A stretch of DNA of 64,000 nucleotides from a virus. A program made the translations under genes and the position numbers. The notes under the pieces were generated by a model that saw nothing but the letters and a program-made list of their open reading frames with translations, did no database searches and had not been told where the DNA came from. Below, one piece after another: positions 41,170-64,000 of the stretch (its first letter is position 1; each line of letters opens with the position of its first letter). The DNA is taken from the IMG/VR virus record IMGVR_UViG_3300029953_000001; one strand, given 5' to 3'.

Positions 41170-41178
41170 GGGGACACT

Positions 41179-41406: not shown

Positions 41407-41562
41407 GACCCAATGACATTATCTGCCCGTGTGGTGATGTATGTGGCAAGCGGTACCCCGCAACCGAGGTTGACCCCGGCTTTGCTGAGGGTATCGGCGA
41501 GAACTTTACATCGGAAGATGGTGCGTGGCACTGCTCACAGGACTGCCTTGATGAGAACAACG

Positions 41563-41916
41563 ATGAATAGCGAAATGAAAGCACAATTGACAGAGGCTAT
41601 AGTGCAGTATCTGAAGCTTTCTGGCCCGGTTGATTCAGATTATTGCATCGTAGCTCACTATGCTGTAGCGCGGAGCAACCTTATCTCGGTACTATCCAAA
41701 CTGAAGGAGGAAACTACCACGGTTCCACGCGACCTGTGTGGGGACATACAGGGACTACCCCCTGATGAGGTAGAATCATATCGGTTGGACGAGGCCCTCT
41801 TCGCGCTTACGGCTCTGGTCGAGGAGTTCAACTGCTTACCCAGAGTTCAGAAGACCTCAGTGCAAGAGTGCATGAAAGCCGCCAGAGACTACCGGGTGTT
41901 TGTGCCGACAGCCTGA
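41563..41916 (+). CDS. hypothetical protein
   Basis: Open frame; start uncertain. Confidence 0.5.
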   Translation: MNSEMKAQLTEAIVQYLKLSGPVDSDYCIVAHYAVARSNLISVLSKLKEETTTVPRDLCGDIQGLPPDEVESYRLDEALFALTALVEEFNCLPRVQKTSVQECMKAARDYRVFVPTA

Positions 41917-41922
41917 AGGAAC

Positions 41923-42615
41923 TTACCCCTGAAATTTTGCGGTCAGGTTTTTGTCACGGGTGAACCCCCCGCTATTACCGATGGCACTCTTAACTTGATT
42001 TGGATTCAAGGTAACATATGCGGTGGTACTCAGACCGTTGAAGGACTCTTCCATGAAGACACCATCATACCCGTTCTCCAACAGAACCCGTTTCGTCGCA
42101 GCTTTGCTCAGACCCAGATGCTCCCAAAAAGTGGCAGAAGCGTCCATGCGGTTCACCGCGTTCGGGCACTTGGAGTCGCCGGGGTGGGGTGGCCGACTCC
42201 CGCAAAGGAGACATGAGCCACTGCGAGATAGTGACCAACAGGGTGCGAAGAACTTGTCAGTTTTATTGGCACCGATAAACTCCGCATACTGCTGGCCGGT
42301 GATGGAGTCTTCCCCAAAGGGTCGAGCATCGAGCGGGTTGCCAATTTTCAAATACACAGGGATGGTCTTCGCCCCCTCAGGTCTTCCAAAAGTCCCACCA
42401 TTAGGGTTTCCGTGTCCCCCATCAGTGAACTTCTCACTATACTCAGGGTCAGGCGTGAAATAAGCCAAACCCGCGAAGGAGTCAAAATCAGCCGTAGTTC
42501 CATGATAGACACGGAGGGGCTGACCCACGCCGTCCACAACTTTAGACCCAGAGAACCATTGCTTGAACGCGGGTGTTTCTATTATCGGATTGAGAAACTT
42601 ACTCTGAAATTTCAT
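41923..42615 (-). CDS. ART-PolyVal-like ADP-ribosyltransferase domain protein
   Basis: TPAFKQWF..SKVVD..GQPLRVYHGT, YFT, PVYLKI.NP, GYDG, PNQVKSAIGN.G.F. Confidence 0.8.
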   Translation of the reverse strand: MKFQSKFLNPIIETPAFKQWFSGSKVVDGVGQPLRVYHGTTADFDSFAGLAYFTPDPEYSEKFTDGGHGNPNGGTFGRPEGAKTIPVYLKIGNPLDARPFGEDSITGQQYAEFIGANKTDKFFAPCWSLSRSGSCLLCGSRPPHPGDSKCPNAVNRMDASATFWEHLGLSKAATKRVLLENGYDGVFMEESFNGLSTTAYVTLNPNQVKSAIGNSGGFTRDKNLTAKFQG

Positions 42616-42654
42616 ACCTACTGTGGGTTTGATATTAGAAAAGGAGATGCACGG

Positions 42655-42987
42655 ATGAGCGACGAGGCTAAGAAAGAAATCGACAAGATTGTACGGGCAT
42701 CGCATGACTCTGGCTCTCATGTCGTATATGACATTTTTGATGGATTCAAAGCCCTGTCCCGTTTAGTGCAGGAACAAGGGCGTAAACGAACGGAGATGCT
42801 CAACGAGCGAAGAAGGAGAAAGGCCAGAGAAAGGTATGCCCTCAACAAGAAGCTGGGCATCCCCAACCGCAAACCAAAAGCGGCACCCGAACCGGAACTC
42901 CCGTATGAGGCTCCAACTAGCTGCTACTGTCATATGGGGTACCCTCCCTGTGGCTGGTGTACCAGAGAAATAGGGGATGAGGACTAA
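42655..42987 (+). CDS. hypothetical protein
   Basis: AAGGAG RBS; CYCH..PPCGWC. Confidence 0.65.
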   Translation: MSDEAKKEIDKIVRASHDSGSHVVYDIFDGFKALSRLVQEQGRKRTEMLNERRRRKARERYALNKKLGIPNRKPKAAPEPELPYEAPTSCYCHMGYPPCGWCTREIGDED

Positions 42988-43622
42988 ACACGTTTCATCA
43001 GTCTCCTCGCTTCCTCGGTGTGCTTCCACCCCTTTCCTCTAGCAGCACAGCCGGTTGGTGCCTGAGTTTGAAACCTTCGCTTCTGTGCCTCGCTTATGTT
43101 CTTCCTAGCTTCATCGGAGAATGGTTTATGCTTCTTCCCCTTATGAATCGCCGACAGCTTTGCTCTCACCGCAGCAGAGCGGGTCTCCCCCTTTCTACGG
43201 CGATTGGAGTCTGCAATTTTCTTCTTGGATTCCTCGGTGTGTCGGAACAGTTTCATCCTCTCTCTAATACCCTCAACCACCTGTGTCGAGTGTTTCCGAC
43301 CCGTCATCGGTGCCGTAGTGCTAACAGCCATGTTGTACTCGGCAGCAAGCGTTTTGATGTACCCAGCCTCCTTCTGACGCAGGTCTATCTCAAGCGTGTC
43401 CGGTGGGCATACTTCGAGGATTTCAAAAGCGAAGGCAACTTTACCATACAGGTTCCACGCGGCTTGAAGATGGGCGTTAGGGTGGGTGCCTTTGCTAAGC
43501 AGGGAAGAGTGTTTGTTGAATCGTTTTTGCGTCCACAGGGAACTCCCGATGTATAGCTTGCCGTTCACCAGATTGCGTATCTGGTAGATTGAAATAATTT
43601 TCTTCATATCCGCCGTTTTCAT
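42984..43622 (-). CDS. GIY-YIG homing endonuclease with NUMOD3 repeats
   Basis: SIYQIRNLVNGKLYIGSS; HTEESKKKI-type repeats. Confidence 0.92.
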   Translation of the reverse strand: MKTADMKKIISIYQIRNLVNGKLYIGSSLWTQKRFNKHSSLLSKGTHPNAHLQAAWNLYGKVAFAFEILEVCPPDTLEIDLRQKEAGYIKTLAAEYNMAVSTTAPMTGRKHSTQVVEGIRERMKLFRHTEESKKKIADSNRRRKGETRSAAVRAKLSAIHKGKKHKPFSDEARKNISEAQKRRFQTQAPTGCAARGKGWKHTEEARRLMKRV

Positions 43623-43651
43623 GTATCCTAGAAGTAGGAGAAAGTATCGAG

Positions 43652-45526
43652 ATGGAATCACCTGCGAGTTCCCTTACTAAGAATCCGGTAGTTTGTTTGT
43701 TTGAGGCCAAGCAAGACGGTGTTAGTGCCGAGCTATGCTACGTCAACGGGCGGCTGACCCAAGCTGTTACCCGTGGCACTGGCTCCGAAGGCGAGGATAT
43801 GACCGCTCAGGTCAGGGCTCTCCGTAATGTTCCTCAGGTTTTAGCTCAGGCTCCACTACTGGATATGGCAAAGGAGATTCGCGTTCGGGGCGAACTGGTC
43901 ATGCGTGACGGAGAACTCGACCGCATCAACGCGGAGGCGACTGCCAAAGGGGCTAAGACTTACGCATCAACCCGCAATCTTACTGCGGGAACTCTGAAAC
44001 AGAAAGACCTGTCAGTTGTCTCCAGCCGCGCCCTCATCCTGATACCGTGGGACATGTACTCCCCCACCGAAGACGCTAACTTGCCGGATTCGGCATATGA
44101 CCGGATGCAGCTATTGGAAAGTGTGGGGTTCCCCAAGTATCTCGGCATACGGGTGGAGAAGGAATCTGAAGTGATTCCCGCTATTGATGCTATCCTCGCT
44201 CTGAACTCCAAGTCCGACATCCGTGCAGACGGTGTGGTCATCAAGGTGGACTCGCACAAGCTTCGCAAGGAACTTGGCGTAGCATCGAAGTTCACGAACT
44301 GGATGACGTGCTTCAAGCCGCAGTCGGCATCAGGCACGACCTACCTCCGCGAAATCATCTGGCAGATTGGTCGTCAGGGTGCCCTCACCCCGGTGGCGAC
44401 GTGTGACCCGGTTGTGCTTGCTGGTGCATCGGTGACCCGTGCGACTCTCAACAACGAGACGTGGATTACCGCCATGGGCCTGAAGCTGGGAGCCAAGGTT
44501 GAGATGCTTCGCTCCGGCGATGTCATCCCGCAGATTACCAAGGTGCTGGACGACACTGGCGAGGACATCATCTTCCCCTCCGTCTGCCCTGAGTGCCAGA
44601 AGGTCATCACGGTATGGACTGACCCCAAGAGCAAAATCACCACTCGCTTCTGCGAGAACGGTGTATGCCCCGGTCGCGTGCGTGACCTGTTCAGCTACAT
44701 CGGCTCTCGCGACATCCTTGAAATTGATGGTCTGGCCGACGATATGGCGACCCGCATCATCAAGGGCGAGTTCGCACGCAACATCGGTGAGTTGTTCGAG
44801 TTCCAAGTTGAAGCTCTTCGTGAACTCAACATTCTTCAAGTCAAGTATGGTGAAGAGCCGGGTGAGACCAAGTTCCTTGCCTTGATGAACAAGCAGGGGT
44901 TCAACGTCACCGTCCTGAAGATGCTCCGCAGCATGGAGAAGGCCAAGACGGCCCCGTGGAACAAGTGGCTCTCTGCCTTCGGTATCCCGATGGTCGGTCG
45001 CACCTTGGGTAAGCTGCTGGCGAAGGAACTCAAGCTGGAGTCTGGTGACATGCTCACCCTGTGCTCCAAGCTGGAGGCTGCGTCCAAGAGCAACATCGAA
45101 GGCATGGGCGATGTCAAGAGCGAGATTCTGCTGAAGTGGTCTCTCGACCCTGTGAACCGTTCCATTTGCGAGGCCCTGTACCGTGCTGGTGTTCGTCCTG
45201 AGCCTACCGTCACGCAGAATGCAGGGGCTCAGCCTCTGGTTGGTGTGGCGTTCTGCATCACTGGCGAGTTTGACTTCGTAGACCGCGACGACCTCACGAA
45301 GAAGTTTGAATCTCTCGGTGCTGTTGCGAAGTCTGGCGTGTCCAAGAACCTCACCCACCTTATCGTGGGCGACTCCGGGGCCGGTAAGTCGAAGCTGACC
45401 AAGTTCGATGAACTGGTTGCCAAGGGTGCGAAGATTGAAAAGGTCGGGAAGGATTGGGTCGTCAAGACTCTGGCCGATGCTGGAGTCACGGTGAAGGCCG
45501 CAGGGTTTGCAACGGAGGCGGTCTAA
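43652..45526 (+). CDS. ligA: NAD-dependent DNA ligase, main fragment (adenylation, OB, Zn, HhH, BRCT)
   Basis: EAKQDG (KxDG), TRGTG..GED, RGE, DGVVIK, RATLNN, RSGDVIP, CPEC, FCITG. Confidence 0.93.
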   Translation: MESPASSLTKNPVVCLFEAKQDGVSAELCYVNGRLTQAVTRGTGSEGEDMTAQVRALRNVPQVLAQAPLLDMAKEIRVRGELVMRDGELDRINAEATAKGAKTYASTRNLTAGTLKQKDLSVVSSRALILIPWDMYSPTEDANLPDSAYDRMQLLESVGFPKYLGIRVEKESEVIPAIDAILALNSKSDIRADGVVIKVDSHKLRKELGVASKFTNWMTCFKPQSASGTTYLREIIWQIGRQGALTPVATCDPVVLAGASVTRATLNNETWITAMGLKLGAKVEMLRSGDVIPQITKVLDDTGEDIIFPSVCPECQKVITVWTDPKSKITTRFCENGVCPGRVRDLFSYIGSRDILEIDGLADDMATRIIKGEFARNIGELFEFQVEALRELNILQVKYGEEPGETKFLALMNKQGFNVTVLKMLRSMEKAKTAPWNKWLSAFGIPMVGRTLGKLLAKELKLESGDMLTLCSKLEAASKSNIEGMGDVKSEILLKWSLDPVNRSICEALYRAGVRPEPTVTQNAGAQPLVGVAFCITGEFDFVDRDDLTKKFESLGAVAKSGVSKNLTHLIVGDSGAGKSKLTKFDELVAKGAKIEKVGKDWVVKTLADAGVTVKAAGFATEAV

Positions 45527-45987: not shown

Positions 45988-46097
45988 GAGCCGATGTCAC
46001 CAATCGCCTACACCCATGAAGAGGCCCGTATCCTGTACGAGCAAGCCCTTGAAGCCGGGGAGATTCTAAGCTACAGCGAAATAATTCAAAAAATAGT

Positions 46098-46133: not shown

Positions 46134-46211
46134 ATGAAGAACACGTTATCCATATCGTCAAGCTCTACCTCATCCAGTTCATGGACTGGCGGCGGCGTGG
46201 TGAACGTTTGA
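46134..46211 (+). CDS. Ser-rich attenuator leader peptide MKNTLSISSSSTSSSSWTGGGVVNV
   Basis: 9 Ser using all 6 codons plus TTA and ATA; lies between promoter and terminator ahead of tRNA-Ser/Leu/Ile genes. Confidence 0.8.
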   Translation: MKNTLSISSSSTSSSSWTGGGVVNV

Positions 46212-46249
46212 TACTGTGGATAAGTAAACACAGACTTCAGCAAGATACC

Positions 46250-46276
46250 AAAGCCGCCCAACTCGGGTGGCTTTTT
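46250..46276 (+). terminator. attenuator terminator 1
   Basis: AAAGCCGCCC-AACTC-GGGTGGCTTTTT; its 5' arm can alternatively pair with GGCGGC-G-TGGTG at 46191-46202. Confidence 0.85.
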
Positions 46277-46282
46277 AGTTTT

Positions 46283-46372
46283 GGAGAGATGGCAGAGTGG
46301 TCGATTGCACCACCTTGGAAAGGTGGCATACTCGCAAGGGTATCGAGGGTTCGAATCCCTCTTTCTCCGCCA
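46283..46372 (+). tRNA. tRNA-Ser(GGA)
   Basis: Cloverleaf, long variable arm, G73, CCA. Confidence 0.95.
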
Positions 46373-46386
46373 ACTTGTAAGCTTTA

Positions 46387-46493
46387 CTTTACTGTTGGGT
46401 GAGCGGCTTAAACCTAACTATGATGAAGTTCTTCGGGAAGTGTCATAGCACGAAGTACCGGGGTACCGCTGGTTCGAATCCAGCACAGAAAGG
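46387..46493 (+). ncRNA. tRNA-like RNA with extended hairpin in place of the anticodon arm
   Basis: Class II D arm, variable arm and GCTGG-TTCGAAT-CCAGC T arm; no CCA. Confidence 0.6.
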
Positions 46494-46498
46494 TTTGC

Positions 46499-46948
46499 AT
46501 GAAGTTCGATACGTACGTGGATGTACAGTGGAAGATTTGTGTGCAGTGTGGTGCTGAGCGGGTCTTCGGTAAGGAAGCCGAAGCGGTCGCGGAACGTATG
46601 GTGGGCAGGGGTACTCCACGTGAAGAGGCTGATGCCTATGTCCGAGAGGGTAACTGCTATCTGGAGTGTCCGACACCGGAGAAGCATAAGCCGGGGATGC
46701 CGATGGTACCGCTGGAGGAACTTGAGCACGAAGCGTACTACCACGGGAAGTGCCGCAACGCCACAGTAGCCCGGTGGGACGCGGAGAAGAAGCGGTTCAC
46801 GTACATGCGTGAGAAGTTTGGGCAGGTATACCCGGAGACGATTGGCTACTTTGTTGAGGCCAAGCCGGGGGAGCACAGATTTGATGAGTTCAAGCCATAC
46901 GGGAAGATGGAAGTCCCGCCGTTTGAAATCAAGTTGTATCAGAATTAA
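46499..46948 (+). CDS. hypothetical protein
   Basis: YYHGKCRNATVARWD. Confidence 0.75.
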   Translation: MKFDTYVDVQWKICVQCGAERVFGKEAEAVAERMVGRGTPREEADAYVREGNCYLECPTPEKHKPGMPMVPLEELEHEAYYHGKCRNATVARWDAEKKRFTYMREKFGQVYPETIGYFVEAKPGEHRFDEFKPYGKMEVPPFEIKLYQN

Positions 46949-47064
46949 GTTCAACGCCAAAATAAATGTGAGGTCAGCCGCTCATATTGCCTGAAAGCTG
47001 GACATATACAAGTGAGGGGTTAATTCTAAGCCGCCCCCAGCGTATGTACCAACAGGAGGCATTT

Positions 47065-47286
47065 ATGAGCATGACACACATTCGCAAGGCCACTGAGGCC
47101 GAGCACAACGCAGCGAAGCTGTTGCAAGCGGCACGATTGATTGGTGAGGTTGCAGCAGGGTACGACCGGAAGAGCAGCACCTGTGAGTGCTGTGGTCTGA
47201 CGGTTCAGGCCAACCGGCCCGAGTTCCTGAGGGGCATCGAATTGGATGCCATGGTGAAGAAGCTCGAACGGTTCGGTGGTTCGTAA
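47065..47286 (+). CDS. hypothetical protein
   Basis: GGAGG RBS; CECCG. Confidence 0.65.
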   Translation: MSMTHIRKATEAEHNAAKLLQAARLIGEVAAGYDRKSSTCECCGLTVQANRPEFLRGIELDAMVKKLERFGGS

Positions 47287-47292
47287 AAGTTT

Positions 47293-47378
47293 GGAGAGTG
47301 GGCAGGACGGTAATGCAGCAGTTTGCTAAACTGTACAACCGCAAGGTTGACCGGGTTCGACCCCCGGACTCTCCGCCA
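47293..47378 (+). tRNA. tRNA-Ser(GCT)
   Basis: Cloverleaf, long variable arm, CCA. Confidence 0.95.
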
Positions 47379-47383
47379 AAATT

Positions 47384-47471
47384 GGAGGCGTTGGGCATGT
47401 GCTAAGCCCACCCCGCTCGAAACGGGACGTTCCGCAAGGACTTGGGGGTTGAACTCCCTCCGCCTCCGCCA
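47384..47471 (+). tRNA. tRNA-Ser(CGA), atypical D and T loops
   Basis: Cloverleaf, CCA; D loop lacks GG, T loop TTGAACT. Confidence 0.85.
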
Positions 47472-47678
47472 AAATTTATGAAAGGTATTGCATGAGCGAA
47501 CTGTACTATCCCGAGTGCGACGGTCATCTGTTCAATGAGCAGATTCCAGCACAGGAGTTCCCTTCGGATACGAAGGCAGTCAAGTATTACAAGAGCAGGT
47601 ACGGTGGGCTCTTGATGGCAGTTGTCAAGGACAATGACCCGCAGTTGAGCATTGTCTACACTAGGAAATAAAAGTTTG

Positions 47679-47771
47679 GGAAGGTTGGCAGAGCGGTCGA
47701 TTGCGCTAGTCTTGAAAACTAGAGTGTCCTAGTGATAGGCACCGTGGGTTCGAATCCGACACCTTCCTCCA
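47679..47771 (+). tRNA. tRNA-Ser(TGA)
   Basis: Cloverleaf, long variable arm, U73, CCA. Confidence 0.92.
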
Positions 47772-47774
47772 GTT

Positions 47775-47916
47775 TGTACATACGCCGTGAAGCAGTCAGG
47801 CAAGACTGATACTACCAAGCATCGACGGGTACTTGGCTTTCTGGTGAGAAGAACCCTCAGTTGGGTACGGGGAACTGCCGCAAGGCGACGTGGATTGAAC
47901 CCTGACCGGATGTGCA
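47775..47916 (+). ncRNA. candidate multibranch structured RNA
   Basis: TGTACAT/ATGTGCA closing stem with several internal hairpins. Confidence 0.45.
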
Positions 47917-48107
47917 TGTTTATAGGAACGTATGACCCGCGAAGAGAAGGCTGAAAGAGTTCTACAAATCGCTGAGAAGTTCATCGCTGACCAGAAGATT
48001 GTGTGCTCTGAAGCGGTGTACCAGTCCGACCGGGTGATTGAGAACGCTTACGAGTTCATCGAAGCCATTTGTAACGTGGCCGGGTATTTCGAGTATGATG
48101 AAGATTA

Positions 48108-48184
48108 GTGCCCTTAGCTCAATTGGTCAGAGCGACGTGCTCATAACGCGGGGGTTCTCGGTTCAAGCCCGAGAGGGCGCACCA
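48108..48184 (+). tRNA. tRNA CAT anticodon, probably Ile2 (lysidine; reads AUA)
   Basis: Cloverleaf, G1-C72, C4-G69 and C5-G68, A73, CCA. Confidence 0.85.
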
Positions 48185-48212
48185 ACATTTCAAATTGGGA
48201 GTATTGGGTTAG

Positions 48213-48473
48213 ATGAACGAAGGCCAAATTTCCGATGAGCAAGTAGATCAGTTGAACAGCTACGAGCCGGTGAAGGAAGCGAGGACAAAGTTCCTCAAGC
48301 TTCTCGCCGCCTATGTGAAGACTGAGCCGAGTGACCCTGAGTTATTGGCTAAGGTCAAGGAAGCTGAAGTAGAGTACGAAGCTGAGTTCGCTGAGCGGCT
48401 CAAGCATGTGGTGGAGAACCCGCCGCAACCGAAGTCGATTCCACTACGCACAAGGACAGGATTCAAAGAATGA
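48213..48473 (+). CDS. hypothetical protein (leaderless)
   Basis: GTATTG 12 nt upstream of ATG. Confidence 0.65.
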   Translation: MNEGQISDEQVDQLNSYEPVKEARTKFLKLLAAYVKTEPSDPELLAKVKEAEVEYEAEFAERLKHVVENPPQPKSIPLRTRTGFKE

Positions 48474-48525
48474 ACACCGCTTTCACAACCCGCTTACGAA
48501 TACCCAACTCCAATTGAATAAATAT

Positions 48526-48612
48526 GGCGGCGTGGCTGGAACGGTATACACAGGAGACTTAAAATCTCTGGCCCTTCGGGGCATGAGGGTTCGAATCCCT
48601 CCGCCGCTACCA
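48526..48612 (+). tRNA. tRNA-Leu(TAA)
   Basis: Cloverleaf, long variable arm, A73, CCA. Confidence 0.92.
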
Positions 48613-48622
48613 AAAAGCTTAG

Positions 48623-48717
48623 GCTCCCGTAGCGTAGTGGTCTAACGCAACCGCCTTATAACCGGTTTAGCTCCAGATTAGAGCAAGACGTAGGTTCGAA
48701 TCCTACCGGGAGTACCA
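48623..48717 (+). tRNA. tRNA-Ile(TAT) with 23-nt variable region
   Basis: Acceptor GCTCCCG/CGGGAGT, loop CTTATAA, GCTC/GAGC variable hairpin, CCA. Confidence 0.8.
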
Positions 48718-49339
48718 ATTTTTCTTTATCCTCTTTGGATAGCTGTCCATGATCGAACTCCCAATGATGATTACGACAAAGACCCATTAGGTTTTTCAGG
48801 TTATTTATCTCACAGATAAGTGTGGCATCCGCAAACCCAGCCACAGGCTTGATGTGACACACGTCGATATGCTTAAAGTATCCGCATATCCAACATTCTT
48901 TCGGTAGAGGGGAGGCGAAAAACACCCTTTTGGCGTGTGCCCAAACAGTAGCGTCCCCATTAGCTTTTCTTTTGATACGTAATTCCCCTAATGTCACCCC
49001 CGACCAATCTTTAGAATTGGAAACCGCTAGTTTTCTACAAGTCTTGCAATACACTCTCTGGCTACTGATTGAGTCACCACATACTCGGCAATGACCAAGT
49101 TTTGGCCGTTTTGGTTTGAACTTGGAGGTAGCTAAAGCATTACATCTAGATGAACAAAATCTTGGATTAGTTGTGGTGTTTCCACAATGTTCACATGGTT
49201 TTGGGCGGAGGTGTTCCACTTGACAGGTCGCACTGCACTGGGCCGTCGTGTAGCCTAAACGTAAATTACGGTTGTGAGTTTTCAGTGGTCTTTCGAATTC
49301 TTTACCACATTTCGAACAAATGAGGGTTACGAGTGTCAT
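48656..49339 (-). CDS. HNH homing endonuclease overlapping tRNA-Ile antisense
   Basis: CWICGY..HIDVCHIK...NLMGLCRNHHWEFD. Confidence 0.88.
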   Translation of the reverse strand: MTLVTLICSKCGKEFERPLKTHNRNLRLGYTTAQCSATCQVEHLRPKPCEHCGNTTTNPRFCSSRCNALATSKFKPKRPKLGHCRVCGDSISSQRVYCKTCRKLAVSNSKDWSGVTLGELRIKRKANGDATVWAHAKRVFFASPLPKECWICGYFKHIDVCHIKPVAGFADATLICEINNLKNLMGLCRNHHWEFDHGQLSKEDKEKLVLPVGFEPTSCSNLELNRL

Positions 49340-49440
49340 GGTGTAGGGCTCCTGTATAAGACCTACGTAGTTCAATAAGTTTTTACCCCGACAATATATA
49401 ACCCTCCCCCACTACCAAAATTTTCTCAGTATTACTCTGC

Positions 49441-55440: not shown

Positions 55441-55638
55441 ATGAGAACTGACGCTGACCGTTTTGAATGGCTGGAGACTCGTGAAGCTCACTTGATTACA
55501 CACCGGGAGCGTACTTCCGATGGGTACACAATCTGGTGGAACGTAGTAAAGCGGAGGAAGTCTATCTCGGGTCACCCGCTGGGGTCACCACAAGCTGCCA
55601 TCGACGCGGCAATGGATAGAAAGGTTCGACATGTTTAA
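55441..55638 (+). CDS. hypothetical protein
   Basis: AGGTG RBS; DADRFEWLE...AIDAAM. Confidence 0.6.
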   Translation: MRTDADRFEWLETREAHLITHRERTSDGYTIWWNVVKRRKSISGHPLGSPQAAIDAAMDRKVRHV

Positions 55639-56617
55639 CGGTGAGCTAGTCGGTCATGTACTGAACAGCGAAAAGCTGAGGCTGAACCGCATCATCATGG
55701 CGTTCGCGTCAGGCTCGTACCAGCATGGGGCACGTATCGAGGGTAAGTCTGACCTTGACGTGGCCGGTGTCTTCATCGGAACCCCAGCACAGGAACTCAC
55801 CATCGGCAACGAAGACCCAAAGAAGGACGGGCACGTTACCATCACCACGTCTCCTGACAGCCAGAAGAACAAGGTAGGCGATGTTGACCTGAAGGTGTAC
55901 AGCCTTCGGCGTTGGGCAGGTCTCGCCCTCAAGGGCAACCCAACCATCCTCAGCTACCTCTTCGTGCCTGACGCCATCAAGGACAGCTTCGTGACCCATC
56001 CCAGTGTATGGGACAAGTACATCCTGCCCAACAAGCATCTGTTCCTCGCGTCCGGTCATGCGTCGGCCTTCCTTGGTCTGGCGAAGTCCCAGTACGAACG
56101 CATCAACGGCCTGTCGGGTTCGGGCAAGCACGGGCAGCGTGACGAACTCATCAACGAGCACGGCTATGACTCCAAGGCCGGGATGCACCTTGTCCGCTCT
56201 CTGGACGAGTGCCTTGAGTTCCTGAAGACTGGGAGCATGACCTTCCCGCGTCCGAACGTGGATGTGCTGCTTGACATCCGTGCGGGAAACTGGTCTCTGG
56301 ACAAACTGAACGAAGCTTACTTCCAACTACGTGCAGATGTCGTAGCGGCTGAGGAAGCTTCACCGCTGCAACCTGAGTGCGACCGCAAGGCTGTAACCAA
56401 GCTGGTCGCTGACGCCATGATGGAACACTGGGACACCGACAATAAGAAGTGGATGAAGGAGTCACAGCGTTGCACTCCTCTCTCCATCTACCGTGCGGCC
56501 CTGAAGAGTGCCAACGAAGACGTGAAGTATCACACTGAGAAGTTGGCTCAGTCCGCGAAGCAGCTTGCTCAGCAGAACCAGTTCCTGAAGGATTTGCGGG
56601 AGTCATTGGCAAAATGA
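55631..56617 (+). CDS. Pol-beta superfamily nucleotidyltransferase (RlaP/PF10127-like)
   Basis: SGSYQHG...SDLDVAGVF, GNPT, GYDSKAGMHLVR. Confidence 0.85.
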   Translation: MFNGELVGHVLNSEKLRLNRIIMAFASGSYQHGARIEGKSDLDVAGVFIGTPAQELTIGNEDPKKDGHVTITTSPDSQKNKVGDVDLKVYSLRRWAGLALKGNPTILSYLFVPDAIKDSFVTHPSVWDKYILPNKHLFLASGHASAFLGLAKSQYERINGLSGSGKHGQRDELINEHGYDSKAGMHLVRSLDECLEFLKTGSMTFPRPNVDVLLDIRAGNWSLDKLNEAYFQLRADVVAAEEASPLQPECDRKAVTKLVADAMMEHWDTDNKKWMKESQRCTPLSIYRAALKSANEDVKYHTEKLAQSAKQLAQQNQFLKDLRESLAK

Positions 56618-57579: not shown

Positions 57580-58289
57580 TGGCTCCGAAGATGAAGGCGT
57601 CGAAATACGCTGTGAAGGGGTTCGGCATCACGGAGGAATACTCCGACGAACTCATCAAGAAGCATGGGCTGCTCAGCAACGGCAAGTTGGACATTGGCGT
57701 TGCTGGGCTGGCTCAGCTTCTTCAACGTAAGGCTGACAAGGAAGCGGAGAAGAAGTAATGTCACCTTGGGACTACATCGTCGCTCGATGGAACCTTGACT
57801 GGTACGCCTTCACTCACTTTGGTGGGTGGATTATCGTCCCCCTAGCTATCGCCTTTGGTATTTTCCTCTACAAGAACAGGTAACTACTATGAGTCTACTG
57901 CAAACGGAAGACCGCAACCAGATGAGCAAGGAAACCCTGAAGACTCTCGTGGGTGAGACCATCACCAGTGTGGATTTTCACGGAAGCCATGGGCCGGAGT
58001 ACGTTCTCCGCCTGTCTTCCGGTAGGGCGTTGTACATTACTCACAACGACTATACCAGAGACCTACACTTCAACTTCCTCGAAGGTACACTATGAAGCAA
58101 TGCGACCACGAGACCTGCCACTACTGCGACCGCATTGTACTACCGAATGTGCAGGAGTCAAGGGTGTTTATCACCAAAACTTGTCCCTACTGTGGCCGGG
58201 TTATCAGCGACGTGGCGAAAGACCCGGAAGACCGCTGGCCCCAGCGGCGAGGAACAGACGAAAGATTTTTCAAATAAATCAAAAATAGT

Positions 58290-58319
58290 TGTTTCAATTT
58301 CCGAACTATCAGGTATTAT
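58290..58319 (+). promoter_or_regulatory. class A promoter of tRNA array 2
   Basis: AAAATAGT-TGTTTC-N18-TATTAT, very similar to the 46098 promoter. Confidence 0.75.
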
Positions 58320-58357
58320 GTAAGAGAAGCAGAAAACAGCAGCACAAGGAAACTACC

Positions 58358-58459
58358 ATGACGTTAAAACAGACCAATTCGAAGCGGGGCATGTGGCAGC
58401 AGCATAATCGCCGCAGCACGGGTCTGTGTCTATCTCATGGTCGGGTGAAAATCACCTAA
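58358..58459 (+). CDS. attenuator leader peptide MTLKQTNSKRGMWQQHNRRSTGLCLSHGRVKIT
   Basis: AAGGA RBS; 13 of codons 4-19 are K/Q/N/R/M/W/H, the amino acids of the downstream tRNAs. Confidence 0.78.
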   Translation: MTLKQTNSKRGMWQQHNRRSTGLCLSHGRVKIT

Positions 58460-58484
58460 GCACCAACCGAGATTAGAATTACAG

Positions 58485-58511
58485 ACCCTAGCCAAAGCGG
58501 CTAGGGTTTTT
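58485..58511 (+). terminator. attenuator terminator 2
   Basis: ACCCTAGCC-AAAGC-GGCTAGGGT-TTTT; GGGTCTGT (58420-27) can alternatively pair with ACAGACCC (58481-88). Confidence 0.85.
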
Positions 58512-58536
58512 CGTTGTAGGGCTCAGGCTCAAAAGC

Positions 58537-58548
58537 GATCTTTGACAA
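58537..58548 (+). promoter_or_regulatory. boxA-like antitermination element
   Basis: GATCTTTGACAA resembles rrn boxA (GCTCTTTAACAA). Confidence 0.55.
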
Positions 58549-58569
58549 TTGATTTGAAACAACTAATTG

Positions 58570-58645
58570 GGGGGAGTAGGCTCAACTGGCAAACCGATGG
58601 TCTCCAAAACCATTTTTCCGGGTTCAAATCCCGGCTCCCCCGCCA
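58570..58645 (+). tRNA. tRNA-Trp(CCA)
   Basis: Cloverleaf, G73, CCA. Confidence 0.92.
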
Positions 58646-58669
58646 AAAGGCAAAGTTTTGAAAAGATGT

Positions 58670-58744
58670 GGGGCGATTAGTTCAGTGGCAGAACGCCGAT
58701 CTGTGGCATCGGTTACTCGGGTTCGATTCCCGGATTGCCCCCCA
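58670..58744 (+). tRNA. tRNA-His(GTG)
   Basis: G-1/C73, cloverleaf, CCA. Confidence 0.95.
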
Positions 58745-58751
58745 AAAGTTT

Positions 58752-59006
58752 TGGCATGGGCGTAGCGGTACCCGCAAGGGATAAAAGACCGGTACCGGGA
58801 AACTGGTACAGGGAATCAACCGCCAGAACCTATGCTAGAAGCATCAGTAAGGCAAAGGCGTAGCCGGAAGTATTAGGGCGGCTGTGACACTGGTAGCGGA
58901 CGACGTTCGGGAAGTGAAGACCCCCACCTTACTTTTGAGTTAGACGGAAGACGCGGGTAACCAACCCTGCCTCACGGAATGGTGAGGAGCTTCGCAAAGC
59001 ACCGTC
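58752..59006 (+). ncRNA. three consecutive closed multibranch RNA modules
   Basis: Closing stems 58752/58837, 58846/58933, 58943/59006; GNRA loops. Confidence 0.5.
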
Positions 59007-59011
59007 GTTTT

Positions 59012-59101
59012 GTACCCGTGGTGTGAATTGGATTAGCCGCCACCCTCCGAAGGTGGGCTGACGAAAGTCTCATGCAGGTTCGAGTCCTGCCGGGTACACC
59101 A
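59012..59101 (+). tRNA. tRNA-Arg(CCG) with long variable arm
   Basis: CCACC-CTCCGAA-GGTGG; GAC-GAAA-GTC variable hairpin; CCA. Confidence 0.85.
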
Positions 59102-59108
59102 AGTCTTT

Positions 59109-59330
59109 GTGTGAAAGGGGAGGCGATGTGCCTCATCGGGCGTGATAGCCCGGATATGTCAGTAAATGCTGGCCGCACAAGCCAAGACGGTTCCGAGGAG
59201 GTTCGATACCTTCACCACTTGCAAGTGGGTCGTCGCGACGACACTGGAAAAGGTTCCGAGCAATCAGGATGCTCTCGGTTGAAAGGCCGGGAGGGGTGGA
59301 CAGGGAGTTCAGCATTCTCGCCCACATCCT
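59109..59330 (+). ncRNA. structured RNAs, one ending in a T-arm-like hairpin
   Basis: GGAGG-TTCGATA-CCTTC plus several hairpins; GTGGGT/GCCCAC closing stem. Confidence 0.45.
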
Positions 59331-59387
59331 AAGAACAAGGCACAGTACTTGCCTTTACCTGCTACGAACAGGATGTGCAAAATATAT

Positions 59388-59476
59388 GCGCCCGTAGCCT
59401 AGCGGATGAGGCACCAGACTACGAATCTGTTGAACGAGAGTTCTCTACAGAGGTTCGAATCCTCTCGGGCGCACCA
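59388..59476 (+). tRNA. tRNA-Arg(ACG) with long variable region
   Basis: Loop CTACGAA; 18-nt variable region; CCA. Confidence 0.88.
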
Positions 59477-60089
59477 ACTTTATGGTTTCAAGCGATAGGA
59501 GGTCGTTATCAAACTCCCAGTGGCAGTTACGACACAGAGGTAAGACGTTGCTGACATTGTTGATTTCGCCGAGAGTAGAATCAAGTGAGAAGGTTTTTAT
59601 GCCTTTGATGTGAGCAAGTTCACTGTGCTTACTATAACCACAGTACAAGCAAGGTAGTTTGAGAAGGTGTTTGTTCCATGAACGGTTGAACCGCCTGACG
59701 AAATCATAGATGTGGCTACGGTGCTTGCCTTTTACATAAGGTGAATTCATCGCCTCTTCAAGAGTCATAAGGCGGAAGTCTACTCGGATATACTCATTAG
59801 ACCCGTGGCGTTTGCGTAGCCGAAGGTGGGGAGTAAGTAGATGTTCCTTGTTTCCAGAACATGGGGAGCAGAAGGTGTAAGACCGGTGGGATGTTGAGCA
59901 TGTAAACTCAGCCCCGCAGGATTTACAAGTACGAGGTTTTGGTGGGTTTCTTTGAAGACCACGACGGAGTTTGGCTGAGCAGGAACGTGAGCAGAAGTTA
60001 CGACCGGGAGATGATCTACGGATTTCAGCTTCAGCCTTTTCAAATTCTACTTGGCAAGTTAGGCAAGTGACTTTTGTTTTAGTTTGCAT
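59445..60089 (-). CDS. HNH homing endonuclease overlapping tRNA-Arg antisense
   Basis: CLYCGY..HSELAHIK...NVLPLCRNCHWEFD; paralog of 48656. Confidence 0.88.
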   Translation of the reverse strand: MQTKTKVTCLTCQVEFEKAEAEIRRSSPGRNFCSRSCSAKLRRGLQRNPPKPRTCKSCGAEFTCSTSHRSYTFCSPCSGNKEHLLTPHLRLRKRHGSNEYIRVDFRLMTLEEAMNSPYVKGKHRSHIYDFVRRFNRSWNKHLLKLPCLYCGYSKHSELAHIKGIKTFSLDSTLGEINNVSNVLPLCRNCHWEFDNDLLSLETIKLVRPRGFEPL

Positions 60090-60152
60090 ACTCAAGGGGT
60101 TTAAAGTCAGATAGTATTTTCATTTATGATCTGAGTTCAATCCCTGATAACA

Positions 60153-60228
60153 GCCCCCGTCGTTCAACGGACAAGGACACCGACCTTCTAAGTCGTGGAT
60201 GTGAGTTCGATTCTTACCGGGGGCACCA
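60153..60228 (+). tRNA. tRNA-Arg(TCT)
   Basis: Cloverleaf, CCA. Confidence 0.93.
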
Positions 60229-60258
60229 AGTTTTGAGGCGAGAACATCCGTCTCGGTT

Positions 60259-60432
60259 TCGGGCACCAGTGGTTCCAGCCGTTGGTCACGACTAGACCTA
60301 GACAGATTCACGAGGGCTGGAACCTACGTGATGAGTCTGAACAAAGCACCGGACTCGTAATCCGGGGATGTGACGAGAGGGTTGGTCACCATGCGGCGTT
60401 GGCCGGATGTAGCTTTAGAAGTCAGTGCCCGA
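60259..60432 (+). ncRNA. structured RNA containing a degenerate tRNA-Thr(CGT)-like domain
   Basis: TCGGGCAC/GTGCCCGA outer stem; 10-bp stem 60271/60324; CCGGA-CTCGTAA-TCCGG. Confidence 0.5.
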
Positions 60433-60548
60433 TAAGTTCAATGGAGGTCATGCGTGTAAATCCTCCAGCAGAGGCAGTGTTCCGGCATCGTACCCATTCG
60501 ACCGGAACTGAGTAAGTCCGCTGTCCGGGAGCACCGGGTGAGAGTTGT

Positions 60549-60623
60549 TGGCAAGTGGTCTAATGGTATGATGCTCCGCTGTTACCGGAGAAGGTGTCGG
60601 TTCGAATCCGGCCTTGCCAGCCA
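60549..60623 (+). tRNA. tRNA-Asn(GTT), C38 variant
   Basis: U1-A72, G73, loop CTGTTAC, CCA. Confidence 0.9.
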
Positions 60624-60646
60624 TAGTTTGAGTTGAGGTTCCTTAG

Positions 60647-60713
60647 TTGCTTGTAGCTCAATGGTAGAGCAGCCGCGTTGGCGGCTGATGCGGGTTCGAC
60701 TCCCGCCAAGTGA
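60647..60713 (+). ncRNA. tRNA-like RNA with 4-nt anticodon loop, no CCA
   Basis: Canonical D arm GCTC-AATGGTA-GAGC and T arm; GCCGC-GTTG-GCGGC. Confidence 0.65.
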
Positions 60714-60951
60714 ACGAAAGGGACTAAGAGGGACGGATAGACATCTGGCGGGTAGCTCCCGTCTGTGGAACGTTCGTGAAATCCCAAGCCCTCCCGGTTT
60801 AGTAGCACAAGAAGGGTGACACCTACCCGGCGTTTCGCTTCGGCGATGAACGTACATGAAAGCCTACGTTAGAAGCGTAGAAGGCATGTGTCTTAGTTGA
60901 AGTGGTGTGACGCCGAAGAGAGAGTCGGCCTAAGTTTAGTAGCAGAGATGT

Positions 60952-61042
60952 TCAGGGGTAAAACGTAACTGGCAGCGTACTTGGCTGTTAACCAAGCGGG
61001 TAGCCATTCCCTCTGAGGGTTCGAGTCCCTCCCCCTGAGCCA
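60952..61042 (+). tRNA. tRNA-Asn(GTT) with long variable region
   Basis: CTTGG-CTGTTAA-CCAAG; 18-nt variable region; U1-A72, G73, CCA. Confidence 0.85.
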
Positions 61043-61059
61043 GTTTAGTAGCACAGTAT

Positions 61060-61158
61060 GCGGGGTAGGTGCCCTCTATCTGAGTCGCGACACACTCACG
61101 TCTTGACGCTCAGAGGGTAAGGTGCCACGGGGACGTGAGAATCTCCCCACCCGCACCA
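61060..61158 (+). ncRNA. CCA-ending tRNA mimic without D arm or anticodon loop
   Basis: GCGGG/CCCGC-ACCA acceptor; GGGGA/TCCCC T-like arm; branched GCCCTCT/AGAGGGT domain. Confidence 0.6.
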
Positions 61159-61174
61159 GTTTAGTTCCACATGT

Positions 61175-61248
61175 TCGGTCTTCGTTCAGTGGTAGGACGC
61201 TAGGTTCTGACCCTAGAAACCGGGGTTCGACCCCCTGAGACCGAGCCA
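61175..61248 (+). tRNA. tRNA-Gln(CTG)
   Basis: Cloverleaf, U1-A72, CCA. Confidence 0.92.
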
Positions 61249-61336
61249 AGTTTGATGTCGGCAATACCGGTAGTATGTTACCGATAAAGCCTAGTTTTAG
61301 CTGTATCCGGCACAATTGTACCGCTTACAGGGATAT

Positions 61337-61423
61337 GCGTTCGTGGCAGAGTGGCTTATGCACCTGACTCTTAATCAGCGGGAGAGATTCCCAACGGGGG
61401 TTCGAATCCCTCCGGACGCACCA
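61337..61423 (+). tRNA. tRNA-Lys(CTT) with class II body (long variable arm)
   Basis: D arm GCA-GAGTGGCTTA-TGC; loop CTCTTAA; GGGA/TCCC variable hairpin; CCA. Confidence 0.85.
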
Positions 61424-61443
61424 AGTTTAGATGTACCAGTTTT

Positions 61444-61520
61444 GCGTCGGTCGTATAGCGGATTATTATACTCGGCCCTTACCCGAGATGACGGTGGTTC
61501 GAATCCACCCCGGCGCACCA
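61444..61520 (+). tRNA. tRNA-Lys(CTT), C33/C38 variant
   Basis: CTCGG-CCCTTAC-CCGAG; CCA. Confidence 0.82.
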
Positions 61521-61561
61521 AAGTTTTGCAAAGGAACTATATGAAACGTTTGCCCAAATTC

Positions 61562-61637
61562 GGGGTTGTAACTCAAATGGCTAGAGTCCCGCCTTTTAAG
61601 CGGTGAGATTTCGGTTCGATGCCGAACGGCCCCACCA
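61562..61637 (+). tRNA. tRNA-Lys(TTT)
   Basis: Loop CTTTTAA; CCA. Confidence 0.9.
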
Positions 61638-61707
61638 TAATTTGTACCTACAGTAGGTTAGTCATGCTGGTTTTTCGACTATCGCATACCTCTTATAGGG
61701 GGTTCAA

Positions 61708-62394
61708 ATGCGAAGATTAATGGAAAAACAGAATGAAGCAATTACACTGAGGGTACAGAATCGGCTTTCATTGAAAGAAATTGCGCTTCGACTGGGAGTA
61801 GCCAAGGGTTCTGCCAGTTTATGGTTACGTGATTACCCCCTAAGTAAGGAAGAACTTGTTGATAGACGCAATACATCGGGGCTCCTCAATAAGCCTTCCT
61901 GTTGTCATGATAAAACGTGTATTACATGTGGCGGTTCGTTTACCCACGGTAAGCTGTCTCAGAGGCACTGCTCTAGGAAATGTGCTTCGAGGGAGGGAGG
62001 GAAACAGTCGAAGCAGTCGTGGGATAGAAGACGGGCTGTACTACTAGTAAAATGGAAGTCAGGAGTAATAGTTCCATCGGAACGATCAGCCAAAGGTTAT
62101 CTGATAATTGAGCGGGGAAGGAAATGCGAGGACTGTGGGTGGAGTAAAGTGAACCCCAAATCCCTCACAGTTCCAATTGAACTCGAACATGTAGATGGGG
62201 ATTGCTACAATAACAGCTATAGTAATTGTAGGTTGCTTTGTCCTAATTGTCACTCACTGACCCCCACGTATAGGGGGATGAACATGGGTAAGGGCAGGGG
62301 TAGGAAGTTATCCAAGGTTGTAAGTGCATGGGCTAAGGAACGCAATGTCCGTCTGAACTCTAAAGGTGGAACCGACTTAGCCCAAGTAATGTAG
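61708..62394 (+). CDS. HNH homing endonuclease with N-terminal HTH
   Basis: SLKEIALRLGVAKGS; LEHVDGD..NN..SNCRLLCPNCHS. Confidence 0.9.
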   Translation: MRRLMEKQNEAITLRVQNRLSLKEIALRLGVAKGSASLWLRDYPLSKEELVDRRNTSGLLNKPSCCHDKTCITCGGSFTHGKLSQRHCSRKCASREGGKQSKQSWDRRRAVLLVKWKSGVIVPSERSAKGYLIIERGRKCEDCGWSKVNPKSLTVPIELEHVDGDCYNNSYSNCRLLCPNCHSLTPTYRGMNMGKGRGRKLSKVVSAWAKERNVRLNSKGGTDLAQVM

Positions 62395-62395
62395 T

Positions 62396-62472
62396 GCCTC
62401 GGTCGTCCAGCGGTCTAAGACGCCTCTCTCATAAGGAGGAAATCGTCGGTTCAAATCCGACCCGAGGTACCA
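62396..62472 (+). tRNA. tRNA-Met(CAT), elongator
   Basis: Cloverleaf, loop CTCATAA, CCA. Confidence 0.88.
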
Positions 62473-62479
62473 AAGTTAT

Positions 62480-62556
62480 TGGGAGATAGTTCAATTGGTA
62501 GAACACTCGGTTCTGACCCGAGAGGTTTGCAGGTTCGATCCCTGCTCTCCCAACCA
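62480..62556 (+). tRNA. tRNA-Gln(CTG)
   Basis: Cloverleaf, U1-A72, CCA. Confidence 0.92.
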
Positions 62557-62782
62557 AAAATGTGGTAAGACATCCAACCCAACCTCCGCAACCAAGATAT
62601 GTTGAGACAGTTACGTCAACCCGAGGATGTAGTAGACTTCATCGACGGACTGTTTCTTACCCTCATCGGATGGCTGGGTACACGCCACTGGGGGATGACA
62701 GTAATAGTGATGCACTTCCGTTCCGGTTGGTACTCTAAGCGTAGAGTATGGAACGACAAGGAAAAGAAGTGGGTCAAAAGGA

Positions 62783-62844
62783 TTGCGGGTGCCTAGATGT
62801 CGGAGGCTAACCGAGAGGTCGCAGGTTCAATGTCTGCCCCGCAA
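62783..62844 (+). pseudogene. degenerate tRNA (fMet-like remnant)
   Basis: GCGGG/CCCGCAA acceptor and AGGTC-GCAGG-TTCAATG-TCTGC; D arm lost. Confidence 0.55.
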
Positions 62845-62852
62845 AGAGATGT

Positions 62853-62927
62853 TCCCAGTTAGCTCAATGGCAGAGCTTACGGCTGTTAACCGTATGGTTG
62901 GGGGTTCGAGTCCCTCACTGGGAGCCA
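62853..62927 (+). tRNA. tRNA-Asn(GTT)
   Basis: Canonical cloverleaf, CCA. Confidence 0.95.
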
Positions 62928-63330
62928 AGTTTTGTTCGACCAAGGAGTGAGAGCAATCTCACTTTTTGCATGTTTGAAGGAAGAAAGTGACGTATCTATC
63001 ACTATGAGAAAGTTTACCCTAACGCTGGATGTCTCGGACAAGTACGACCGCTTCGACTCTGCGGAACTAAGGAGCGAGGTAATGTTGTTTCTCGACGGGC
63101 TATCGTTGAATGTGGAACGAGCTTCAGTGCAATGGACGGAAGACGCTTCCGAGGATAAGACTGATGAGTGAAGAATACGTACGGGAGACCCCAACGTATC
63201 CGCTGCCGGGTCTCAGCAAGGAAGAGACCTTAGAGTATTACGGACTTCAAGTTCTGGGCATGTGGGGTGGCTACCATCTCATTTACAACGGCCCGAAGTG
63301 GGAAAGGTTTCAAGAGTTGGAAGGGAAGAT

Positions 63331-64000
63331 ATGCAGCACGTAGTACAGGCAGGGTTGTTCAACGAGTTCGGTTTCAAAGGGCTGCTCGACGCATTGGATG
63401 CGAACGACAGCAAGTACACCATCGTCAGCGTCCGGGAGCATTTGCAGCCAGAGGTAGACTTCGACCCGGATGAGGATGTGATGGTCTGGGGCTCGATGGG
63501 GTTGGCCCGTATCGCTACTGAGCGTGGCTGGAAGCCCGGTGCGTTTCAAGGCCCTGAGTTCGACATGCAGCAGCACGGAGTACGGTTCGGTCGCAACTTC
63601 TTCAACCACGACGCGACGTACTGCAAGTTCAGTGAGATGGACTTCACGGAGCCGATGTTCGTCCGCCCGGTGCATGACACCAAGGTATTCAACGGTGGTC
63701 TGATGACGCCGGAGGACATGGTGCCTTGGCGTGACCGTATCGTTGAACTGGCAAAGACAGGGTACTGCTCCATCACAGGAGACACCCCGGTTATGTTCGC
63801 ACCACCGAAGCCGATTGACCACGAGGCAAGATTCTTCGTCGTGGACGGCAGGGTTGTAACGGGAAGTGTGTACCGTAGTTTCGGCGAGGTAATGTACGCG
63901 AGGATAGACTCCACCAACGCATTCTTCTATCCGATGATGCAGTTCGCACAGAGGATGGCGGAGCTTGGAGAGACACCCATCTCGGCCACGTATGTACTTG
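63331..64000 (+). CDS. ATP-grasp domain protein (R2K-like), 3' truncated by window
   Basis: Frame from ATG 63331: VWGS, FVRPVHDTKVFNGG, IDHEARFFVVDGRVVTGSVY. Confidence 0.75.
   Translation, partial: MQHVVQAGLFNEFGFKGLLDALDANDSKYTIVSVREHLQPEVDFDPDEDVMVWGSMGLARIATERGWKPGAFQGPEFDMQQHGVRFGRNFFNHDATYCKFSEMDFTEPMFVRPVHDTKVFNGGLMTPEDMVPWRDRIVELAKTGYCSITGDTPVMFAPPKPIDHEARFFVVDGRVVTGSVYRSFGEVMYARIDSTNAFFYPMMQFAQRMAELGETPISATYVL

Follow-up and report, generated by a model that had tools for sequence, protein, structure and literature searches.

Why should a phage place a short open reading frame (ORF) and a transcription terminator directly ahead of a large array of transfer RNA (tRNA) genes? The question is raised by positions 58290..62927 of IMGVR_UViG_3300029953_000001, a record of an uncultured phage, analysed here as one stretch of 64,000 nt (the window). 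A sequence-only reading of the region had proposed that the ORF (leader B) is the leader peptide of an OR-gate attenuator, which polls seven amino acids on behalf of the 14-tRNA array that follows it (array B), and that this serves as inducible anti-defence. The attenuator itself was strongly supported by codon statistics, by predicted alternative folds and by covariation in related phages: the region very probably carries a multivalent leader-peptide transcription attenuator, whose tRNA block would be transcribed only when ribosomes stall on the codons of that block. The features concerned are as follows.

58282..58319, + strand, promoter-like motif, putatively of the sigma-70 type (-10 TATTAT at 58314-58319, weak -35)
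58346..58350, + strand, Shine-Dalgarno-like AAGGA, 7 nt before the ATG
58358..58459, + strand, leader ORF B, 33 codons, MTLKQTNSKRGMWQQHNRRSTGLCLSHGRVKIT* (from the sequence and its homologues)
58367..58414, + strand, sensor block, codons 4-19, with 13/16 codons read by array B tRNAs
58369..58375, + strand, segment 1 (ACAGACC), predicted protector pairing with segment 2 (1:2 fold, -21.9 kcal/mol)
58420..58488, + strand, predicted antiterminator hairpin 2:3 (-32 to -34 kcal/mol)
58483..58511, + strand, intrinsic terminator 3:4 with T run (11-pair stem 58483-58509, -18.8 kcal/mol)
58570..62927, + strand, tRNA array B: Trp CCA, His GTG, Arg CCG/ACG/TCT, Asn GTT x3, Gln CTG x2, Lys CTT x2, Lys TTT and Met CAT (ARAGORN, Rfam)

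Codons 4-19 of the leader were found in the sequence exactly as they had been quoted, the AAGGA put forward as a ribosome-binding site was located at the position listed, and ARAGORN returned the same 14 tRNA genes. The promoter had been described as being of the same type as that of a second leader in the window (leader A, below); the motif AAAATAGTTGTT...GTATTAT is indeed common to both (at 46090 for leader A), but the -35 box of the leader B promoter is weak and a sigma-70 consensus scan did not list it. The homologous promoter position in the complete 463-kb record G002 reads TTGACA-17-TACTAT, and the homologue L274 shares the AAGGAAACTACC-ATG context of leader B. Leader homologues were found in G002, G010, L274 and L275 (the L275 peptide being identical to that of G010), with the ORF retained in 4 units of its class (class B, defined below), while the peptide had no match in PHROG.

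The sensor block was compared with the downstream anticodons, which decode 13 of its 16 codons; leader codons 2-19 touch 9/10 of the anticodon types in array B, and the only type missed is TCT, so that AGA is absent as had been noted. A best 16-codon window of at least 13 matches was reached by 11 of 400,000 random ORFs (phage codon usage) and by 5 of 42,639 stop-free nucleotide shuffles, while the maximum among the genes of the window was 11, over 11,207 windows from 43 rough gene calls. A sister unit is located elsewhere in the window.

46134..46277, + strand, leader A, MKNTLSISSSSTSSSSWTGGGVVNV* (likely leaderless), and terminator (codon match, terminator call)
46283..48717, + strand, tRNA array A: Ser x4, Met CAT, Leu TAA and Ile TAT (ARAGORN)

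Leader A was matched to array A at 11/16 codons, and none of 400,000 random ORFs (phage codon usage) was as good. As a cross-control within the window, leader B was compared with array A (5/32 codons) and leader A with array B (4/24 codons). The codon match lies far outside what chance would give.

The pairings proposed for the leader RNA were located, with GGGTCTGT at 58420, TCTATCTC at 58429, GAGATTAGA at 58469 and ACAGACCC at 58481; GGGTCTGT/ACAGACCC would form the base of the 2:3 hairpin, followed by TCTATCTC/GAGATTAGA and an apical stem containing the stop codon, and the predicted antiterminator overlaps the terminator stem. The motif ACAGACC is present twice, in codons 4-6 and in the 5' arm of the terminator, and either copy can pair with GGGTCTGT; the first copy (58369-58375), the putative protector, had been overlooked in the sequence-only reading. 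The 1:2 protector helix was also predicted in G010 and L274 and was absent from G002, while long 2:3 hairpins of differing sequence were predicted in all 4 class-B units folded. The naked leader B RNA was predicted to fold into the 1:2 helix plus the terminator (z = -4.2 against 200 shuffles). When a ribosome was modelled by folding only the RNA ahead of it, with 9 nt covered past the A site, the predicted sequestration of the terminator arm stayed near 0.7 for A-site positions from codon 2 to codon 18, then fell to 0.4 at codon 19 and to 0 at codon 20, and the matched codon block therefore ends at the predicted switch point. The locus thus has the parts of a classical attenuator, namely a short ORF with a start, matching codons and an intrinsic terminator, as well as a predicted antiterminator which excludes the terminator and would be covered by a ribosome that has passed the regulatory codons. 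One metatranscriptome, with 5% of the words, contained a 445-nt contig over 58354-58454 with 3 differences, which is no evidence of transcription or of a transcript start or end.

Related units were sought in large phages reached through a scan for the promoter pattern, whose tRNA regions were then compared. Class-B pattern scans yielded 2 loci (1 with an array), 1 and 2 loci, the class-C pattern gave 0 matches in GTDB genomes, and a broader pattern scan gave 120 loci, mostly by chance; 107 of the 128 loci examined (including 8 others) were without an array. A content-blind rule (a terminator at most 520 nt before a tRNA, with an ATG ORF of 15-55 codons ending 10-60 nt before the terminator) was applied to 24 loci and gave 22 units, of which 20, from 9 records, were retained; those dropped were L275 (same peptide as L277) and an unmatched unit inside the Pro/Met/Phe block of L267. 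Leaders spotted by eye in L271 and L276, and a sixth class of leaders chosen by content (class F), stand outside the 20. The five classes of arrays are:

Class A: Ser, Leu-TAA, Ile-TAT
Class B: Trp/His/Arg/Asn/Gln-CTG/Lys/Met
Class C: Val/Ala/Gly/Asp/Glu/Cys
Class D: Tyr/Leu
Class E: Ile/Thr/Gln-TTG

All five are carried by G002. The sixth class of leaders, rich in Pro/Met/Phe (e.g. MNTMRPTPMFRPC...), was found ahead of Pro/Met/Phe blocks in 5/5 records (L053 7942, L056 7587, L267 10569, L269 at about 7440 and L271 7276); in L053 and L271 the leader RNA was predicted to pair into the following tRNA region, and these leaders may represent a different switch. There are up to six tRNA blocks per phage, and the classes jointly cover all 20 amino acids.

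The best match of every leader (20/20) was its own array class. The observed score was reached in 0 of 200,000 permutations of leaders and arrays (18 units with at least 4 tRNAs) and in 1 of 120 permutations within G002 alone. Matched codons made up 231/377 of those before the structure-defined switch and 54/195 of those after it. Early sequestration of the terminator 5' arm, with release by the stop codon, was predicted in 20/20 units compared to 3/11 controls, the latter being the terminators with a short ORF among 57, a small set drawn partly from loci chosen by their pairing pattern.

The match extends to isoacceptors. The Gln codon in class-B sensors was CAG in 10/10 cases; Ile was encoded by ATA only in class A (2/2) and by ATT in class E (6/6), and Leu by TTA in class A (2/2) and never in class D (0/20). 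U-ending codons read by wobble made up 31/39 of own-class sensor codons compared to 6/28 out of class. The class-B peptides MTLKQTNSKRGMWQQHNRR, MTSMKHNTVARKQWRNRRH and MTMKQTNSMRQWQKRNHRR are constant in composition and varied in residue order, and the class-B 2:3 and 3:4 helices diverge in sequence while all are predicted to form. A functional-peptide or arrest-peptide reading was rejected, as residue order changes while composition stays.

Along its entire length the helicase of the window shares 56% identity with that of the Tunturiibacter phage Tunturi_5 (PP885688), with other cultured phages far behind. From this one gene, the match suggests an Acidobacteriota host for the window phage. 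In Tunturi 5, which is cultured and has an Acidobacteriota host, a leader, a terminator and a predicted switch were found at 3/3 tRNA arrays. Its tRNAs are grouped differently (Leu/Cys/Tyr/Ser; Gln/Gly/Thr/Pro/His/Ala/Phe; and Trp/Asp/Met/Lys/Val/Arg/Glu/Ile/Gly) and its leader codons track that grouping, a re-matching which is the strongest argument for selection acting to keep leader codons in step with what the block contains.

Similar units were called in the phages phiCbK, Moby and X1. Codon-matched or pan-amino-acid leaders before tRNA arrays were also seen in unrelated phages, at MN095772 (L278 4090-4173), OQ427096 (L279 2011-2130), NC_019405 (L283 8567-8704 and 10368-10466) and L184 (1355 and 4540). 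No leader was called for T5 (21 tRNAs), for pf16 (8 tRNAs), for the 32-tRNA array of L157, where about 1 kb upstream was examined, or for the Longimicrobium tRNA arrays. Among bacterial assemblies, 108 loci gave 45 evaluable junctions, of which 7 had a short ORF and 3 reached an uncorrected p<0.01; beyond these 3, more were recognised by eye in Dactylosporangium. Short ORFs rich in Arg/Leu/Ser/Trp or Arg/Gln, followed by terminators and tRNA clusters, were observed in Paractinoplanes, at six Dactylosporangium loci and at one other locus, and the bacterial loci with such ORFs are L359, L315, L323, L331, L343, L349, L360 and L371.

How would such a unit work? Host RNA polymerase would initiate near 58326 and a ribosome would load at the leader ATG. 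Should decoding be slow at Lys, Gln (CAG), Asn, Arg, Met, Trp or His, the ribosome would pause within codons 4-19 and cover segment 1, leaving segment 2 free to capture the terminator 5' arm, and transcription would enter the array. With fast decoding, segment 2 would lie under the ribosome and the terminator would form; it would form too when the leader is not translated, as would the 1:2 protector. The tRNA product would relieve the signal, giving negative feedback on tRNA supply, and the design would be clade-wide, with the tRNA set of a phage divided into blocks that each have their own codon-matched leader. That the leader is translated, that it is coupled to the host's RNA polymerase and that stalling induces the array are inferences. 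In the his leader any slowed codon evokes a response, even an engineered Ser pair (PMC4046918), and hypomodified tRNA has this effect on leuL and ilvL (PMC8384417). As known attenuators respond to any slow codon, a seven-input OR gate would be mechanistically ordinary. The selected signal is likely to be a shortage of intact, functional tRNA, whether through cleavage, decay, lost modification or excess demand, since extra tRNA cannot cure amino-acid starvation and since matching is at the level of isoacceptors.

Several observations weigh against the attenuator. Leader B also touches 6/7 of the anticodon types in array A, so that the number of anticodon types covered says little when taken by itself. 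Over 58415-58512 the antiterminated and terminated folds differ little in energy (-38.7 and -38.2 kcal/mol), and at equilibrium the terminator was predicted at 0.9 or above at every ribosome position in L050, L051, L055 and L268; given such near-isoenergetic folds and a terminator dominant at equilibrium in several units, kinetic control must be assumed. The sixth-class leaders are without a U-tract terminator, and the structure control is small (n=11). Asp opposes the wobble trend (1/6), AGA/AGG accounted for 0/12 Arg codons in class-B sensors despite Arg TCT/CCT genes in the arrays, class E has CAG in 6/13 cases though its Gln genes are mostly TTG, and class D leaders are rich in Ser while the tRNAs that follow them include none for Ser. 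Neither the Ile/Thr/Gln array of G004 nor the amber-tRNA clusters had a leader called. Since members of one class are homologous, pooling makes the P values smaller than they should be, and true independence exists between classes and between distant phages; L274, moreover, was found through a pattern that included sensor codons. The element is real and conserved, and is very probably a multivalent and modular form of leader-peptide attenuation directed at tRNA genes.

What the attenuator is for is a separate question, and two purposes of the same switch seem equally likely. A serious possibility is an anti-defence role, in which the switch would detect host anticodon nucleases and deploy cleavage-resistant phage tRNAs. 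Colicin D cuts tRNA-Arg and colicin E5 cuts tRNA-His and tRNA-Asn. The literature agrees with what had been said of the other nucleases, namely that AriB cuts tRNA-Lys with rescue by T5 tRNA-Lys (PMC11464382) and that PrrC targets tRNA-Lys (PMC10264068). That these targets overlap with array B is unremarkable, however, because the sister blocks cover the rest of the code. Phage tRNAs give rescue from PARIS (PMC11464382) and have been proposed to be resistant to anticodon nucleases (PMC10264068), and extra tRNA would be useful only where tRNA itself is lost. Also in favour are an RlaP RNA-repair-type nucleotidyltransferase at 55631-56617, an R2K ATP-grasp gene directly 3' of array B, and the tRNA nucleotidyltransferase and splicing ligase encoded by Tunturi 5 (PMC11924767). 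Against it, the blocks are not confined to known nuclease targets but span all 20 amino acids, no leader was called over the 21 tRNAs of T5, the phage whose tRNA-Lys neutralises PARIS (PMC11464382), similar leaders precede tRNA clusters in bacterial assemblies, and the phage probably infects an Acidobacterium and not E. coli. The inducible anti-defence of the sequence-only reading is accordingly plausible but without specific support. In its most general form, likewise a serious possibility, the design would be a modular watch over the whole genetic code: up to six codon-matched attenuators, each tied to its own tRNA block, would detect host tRNAs destroyed by nucleases and switch on the matching replacement set only. 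Given that it recurs in bacterial tRNA clusters and in cultured phages unrelated to each other (Tunturi 5, phiCbK, Moby, X1), it would then be a general inducible counter to tRNA-targeting immunity.

It is quite conceivable, too, that the purpose of the switch is homeostatic, with tRNA dosed to demand so that the pool is kept balanced, defence being incidental; long jumbo-phage infections or slow-growing hosts were proposed as the setting. Coverage of the whole code with isoacceptor-level matching favours this, as does the RNase P RNA inside the class-C block of G002, and the horizontally acquired tRNA arrays of Anabaena are silent and induced by translational stress (PMC8421152). Homeostasis leaves unexplained why a lytic phage should withhold cheap tRNA genes, and antiviral cleavage and ordinary demand are indistinguishable from sequence.

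An unlikely alternative is a leader that responds to a lack of amino acids or to ribosomes slowed in general (by antibiotics or stress), the tRNA block being a general stress response. In the folding model any stall in codons 2-19 should antiterminate, and classical leaders sense aminoacyl-tRNA levels (PMC8384417). General slowing, however, needs neither 20/20 block-specific matches nor the tracking of isoacceptors, and under starvation more uncharged tRNA would give no relief. That the unit is an accident or a vestige, either a plain terminator whose ORF is not translated or a unit made constitutive by a phage antiterminator that overrides it, is very improbable: the weak -35 box at the leader B promoter and the related arrays with no called leader are in its favour, and the codon statistics, the conservation of spacing and structure while sequence diverges, and the re-matching in Tunturi 5 are against it.

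Array B itself is probably longer than 14 genes, as G001, the nearest record, has three further tRNA matches 1.7, 3.7 and 4.6 kb past the last Asn gene. No internal terminator was called in 58512-64000 by the terminator rule used here. Three other features lie within the array.

59445..60095, - strand, HNH endonuclease ORF (Pfam HNH_2)
60647..60715, + strand, tRNA-like gene with an aberrant anticodon loop (ARAGORN '???', Rfam tRNA 52.6 bits)
61708..62394, + strand, HNH endonuclease ORF (PHROGs HNH families)

With a further gene at 48656-49375, HNH endonuclease genes are found in or beside both tRNA arrays. The tRNA-like gene is overlapped by a weak YrlA match (E 0.51), and similar genes recur inside the arrays of L050 (5310) and L270 (4784); they are possibly decoys or Y-RNA-like elements. 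Long, structured-looking spacers lie between tRNAs at 58745-59011, 59100-59387 and 60229-60548, with no Rfam match above gathering, and are possibly stable RNAs of a new type. Array B is flanked by the RlaP-family gene and by the R2K ATP-grasp gene (63322-63999), possibly an RNA-repair context. The NAD-dependent DNA ligase of the window looks split (40777-45526), with an ORF like its N-terminal part at 40777, the bulk of the gene at 43652 and other ORFs between them, possibly an intron or insertion. Comparison of array B with cultured phages by blastn gave single-tRNA matches only, no viral relatives were found for one neighbouring protein, and PADLOC run on 12 window proteins returned nothing relevant.

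In the relatives, a bacterial class-A RNase P RNA (208 bits) was located at L052 4812-5132, within the leader-controlled Val/Gly/Ala/Asp/Cys/Glu block of G002, and one Ala(TGC) tRNA precedes the class-C leader, beyond the reach of its control, in L054 (3325), L057 (4226) and L144 (4362). Clusters with several amber-anticodon (CTA) tRNAs were observed in L051, L055, L058 and L268. At L004, L009, L018 and L039 the promoter precedes an ORF with an early in-frame TAG, and the sequence after it presumably resembles, as judged by eye, peptidyl-tRNA hydrolase 2; this is a possible case of read-through control.

For more than 50 years there has been no settled account of why phages have tRNAs (PMC10264068). 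Where a leader is spelled in the codons of the tRNA block behind it, the genome itself declares what the phage monitors, and the question becomes directly testable as one of cleavage, starvation, modification loss or demand. Tunturi 5 offers a cultured model in the same broad group, phiCbK and Moby offer others in tractable hosts, and such leaders could act as reporters with which to find new tRNA-cleaving defences. Textbook attenuation would be extended to tRNA genes and to seven-input logic at the isoacceptor level.

Among known systems, the trn operon and L-arrays of Anabaena (PMC8421152) are similar in being supernumerary, mobile tRNA arrays with an HNH neighbour, silent until translation is impaired; control there differs in being at the promoter, by direct repeats and a repressor, and is not codon-specific (PMC8421152; TrcR, PMC10272220). 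The T5 tRNA-Lys that acts against PARIS (PMC11464382) and the anticodon-loop hypothesis (PMC10264068) likewise concern phage tRNAs able to replace lost host tRNAs, but no leader regulation is described in the main texts of these papers. The terms 'attenuat' and 'leader' are absent from the main texts of PMC11924767, PMC11464382, PMC10264068 and PMC8421152, and no published description of leader-peptide control of tRNA genes was found in a search that covered listings and the openings of abstracts, with most subscription journals outside it.

The Rfam models of the Trp, His, Leu, Thr and Phe leaders and of the T-box gave no match at gathering score nor, in 58250-63000, at E up to 1, and a T-box was rejected as there was no T-box Rfam match at the locus. 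In the pheST attenuator and in T-box riboswitches tRNA status feeds back on translation-apparatus genes by antitermination, a logic which the phage units would share. The target of the pheST attenuator is a synthetase, however, and a T-box, which has no ORF, itself binds the uncharged tRNA. The enterobacterial leader-peptide attenuators include trpL and thrL. The closest architecture for comparison is that of the his and leu/ilv leaders (PMC4046918, PMC8384417). As in hisL of Salmonella and leuL and ilvL (ilvGMEDA) of E. coli, a short leader ORF has its regulatory codons 5' of an antiterminator arm, the protector, antiterminator and terminator are predicted to be mutually exclusive, and an intrinsic terminator precedes the controlled genes. 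Unlike them, the unit is phage-borne and would control tRNA genes, not biosynthetic enzymes; its leader would poll seven amino acids, each through one to three codons, where theirs have runs for one to three amino acids; and the phage leaders track isoacceptors and form sets of up to six modules which between them cover the code.

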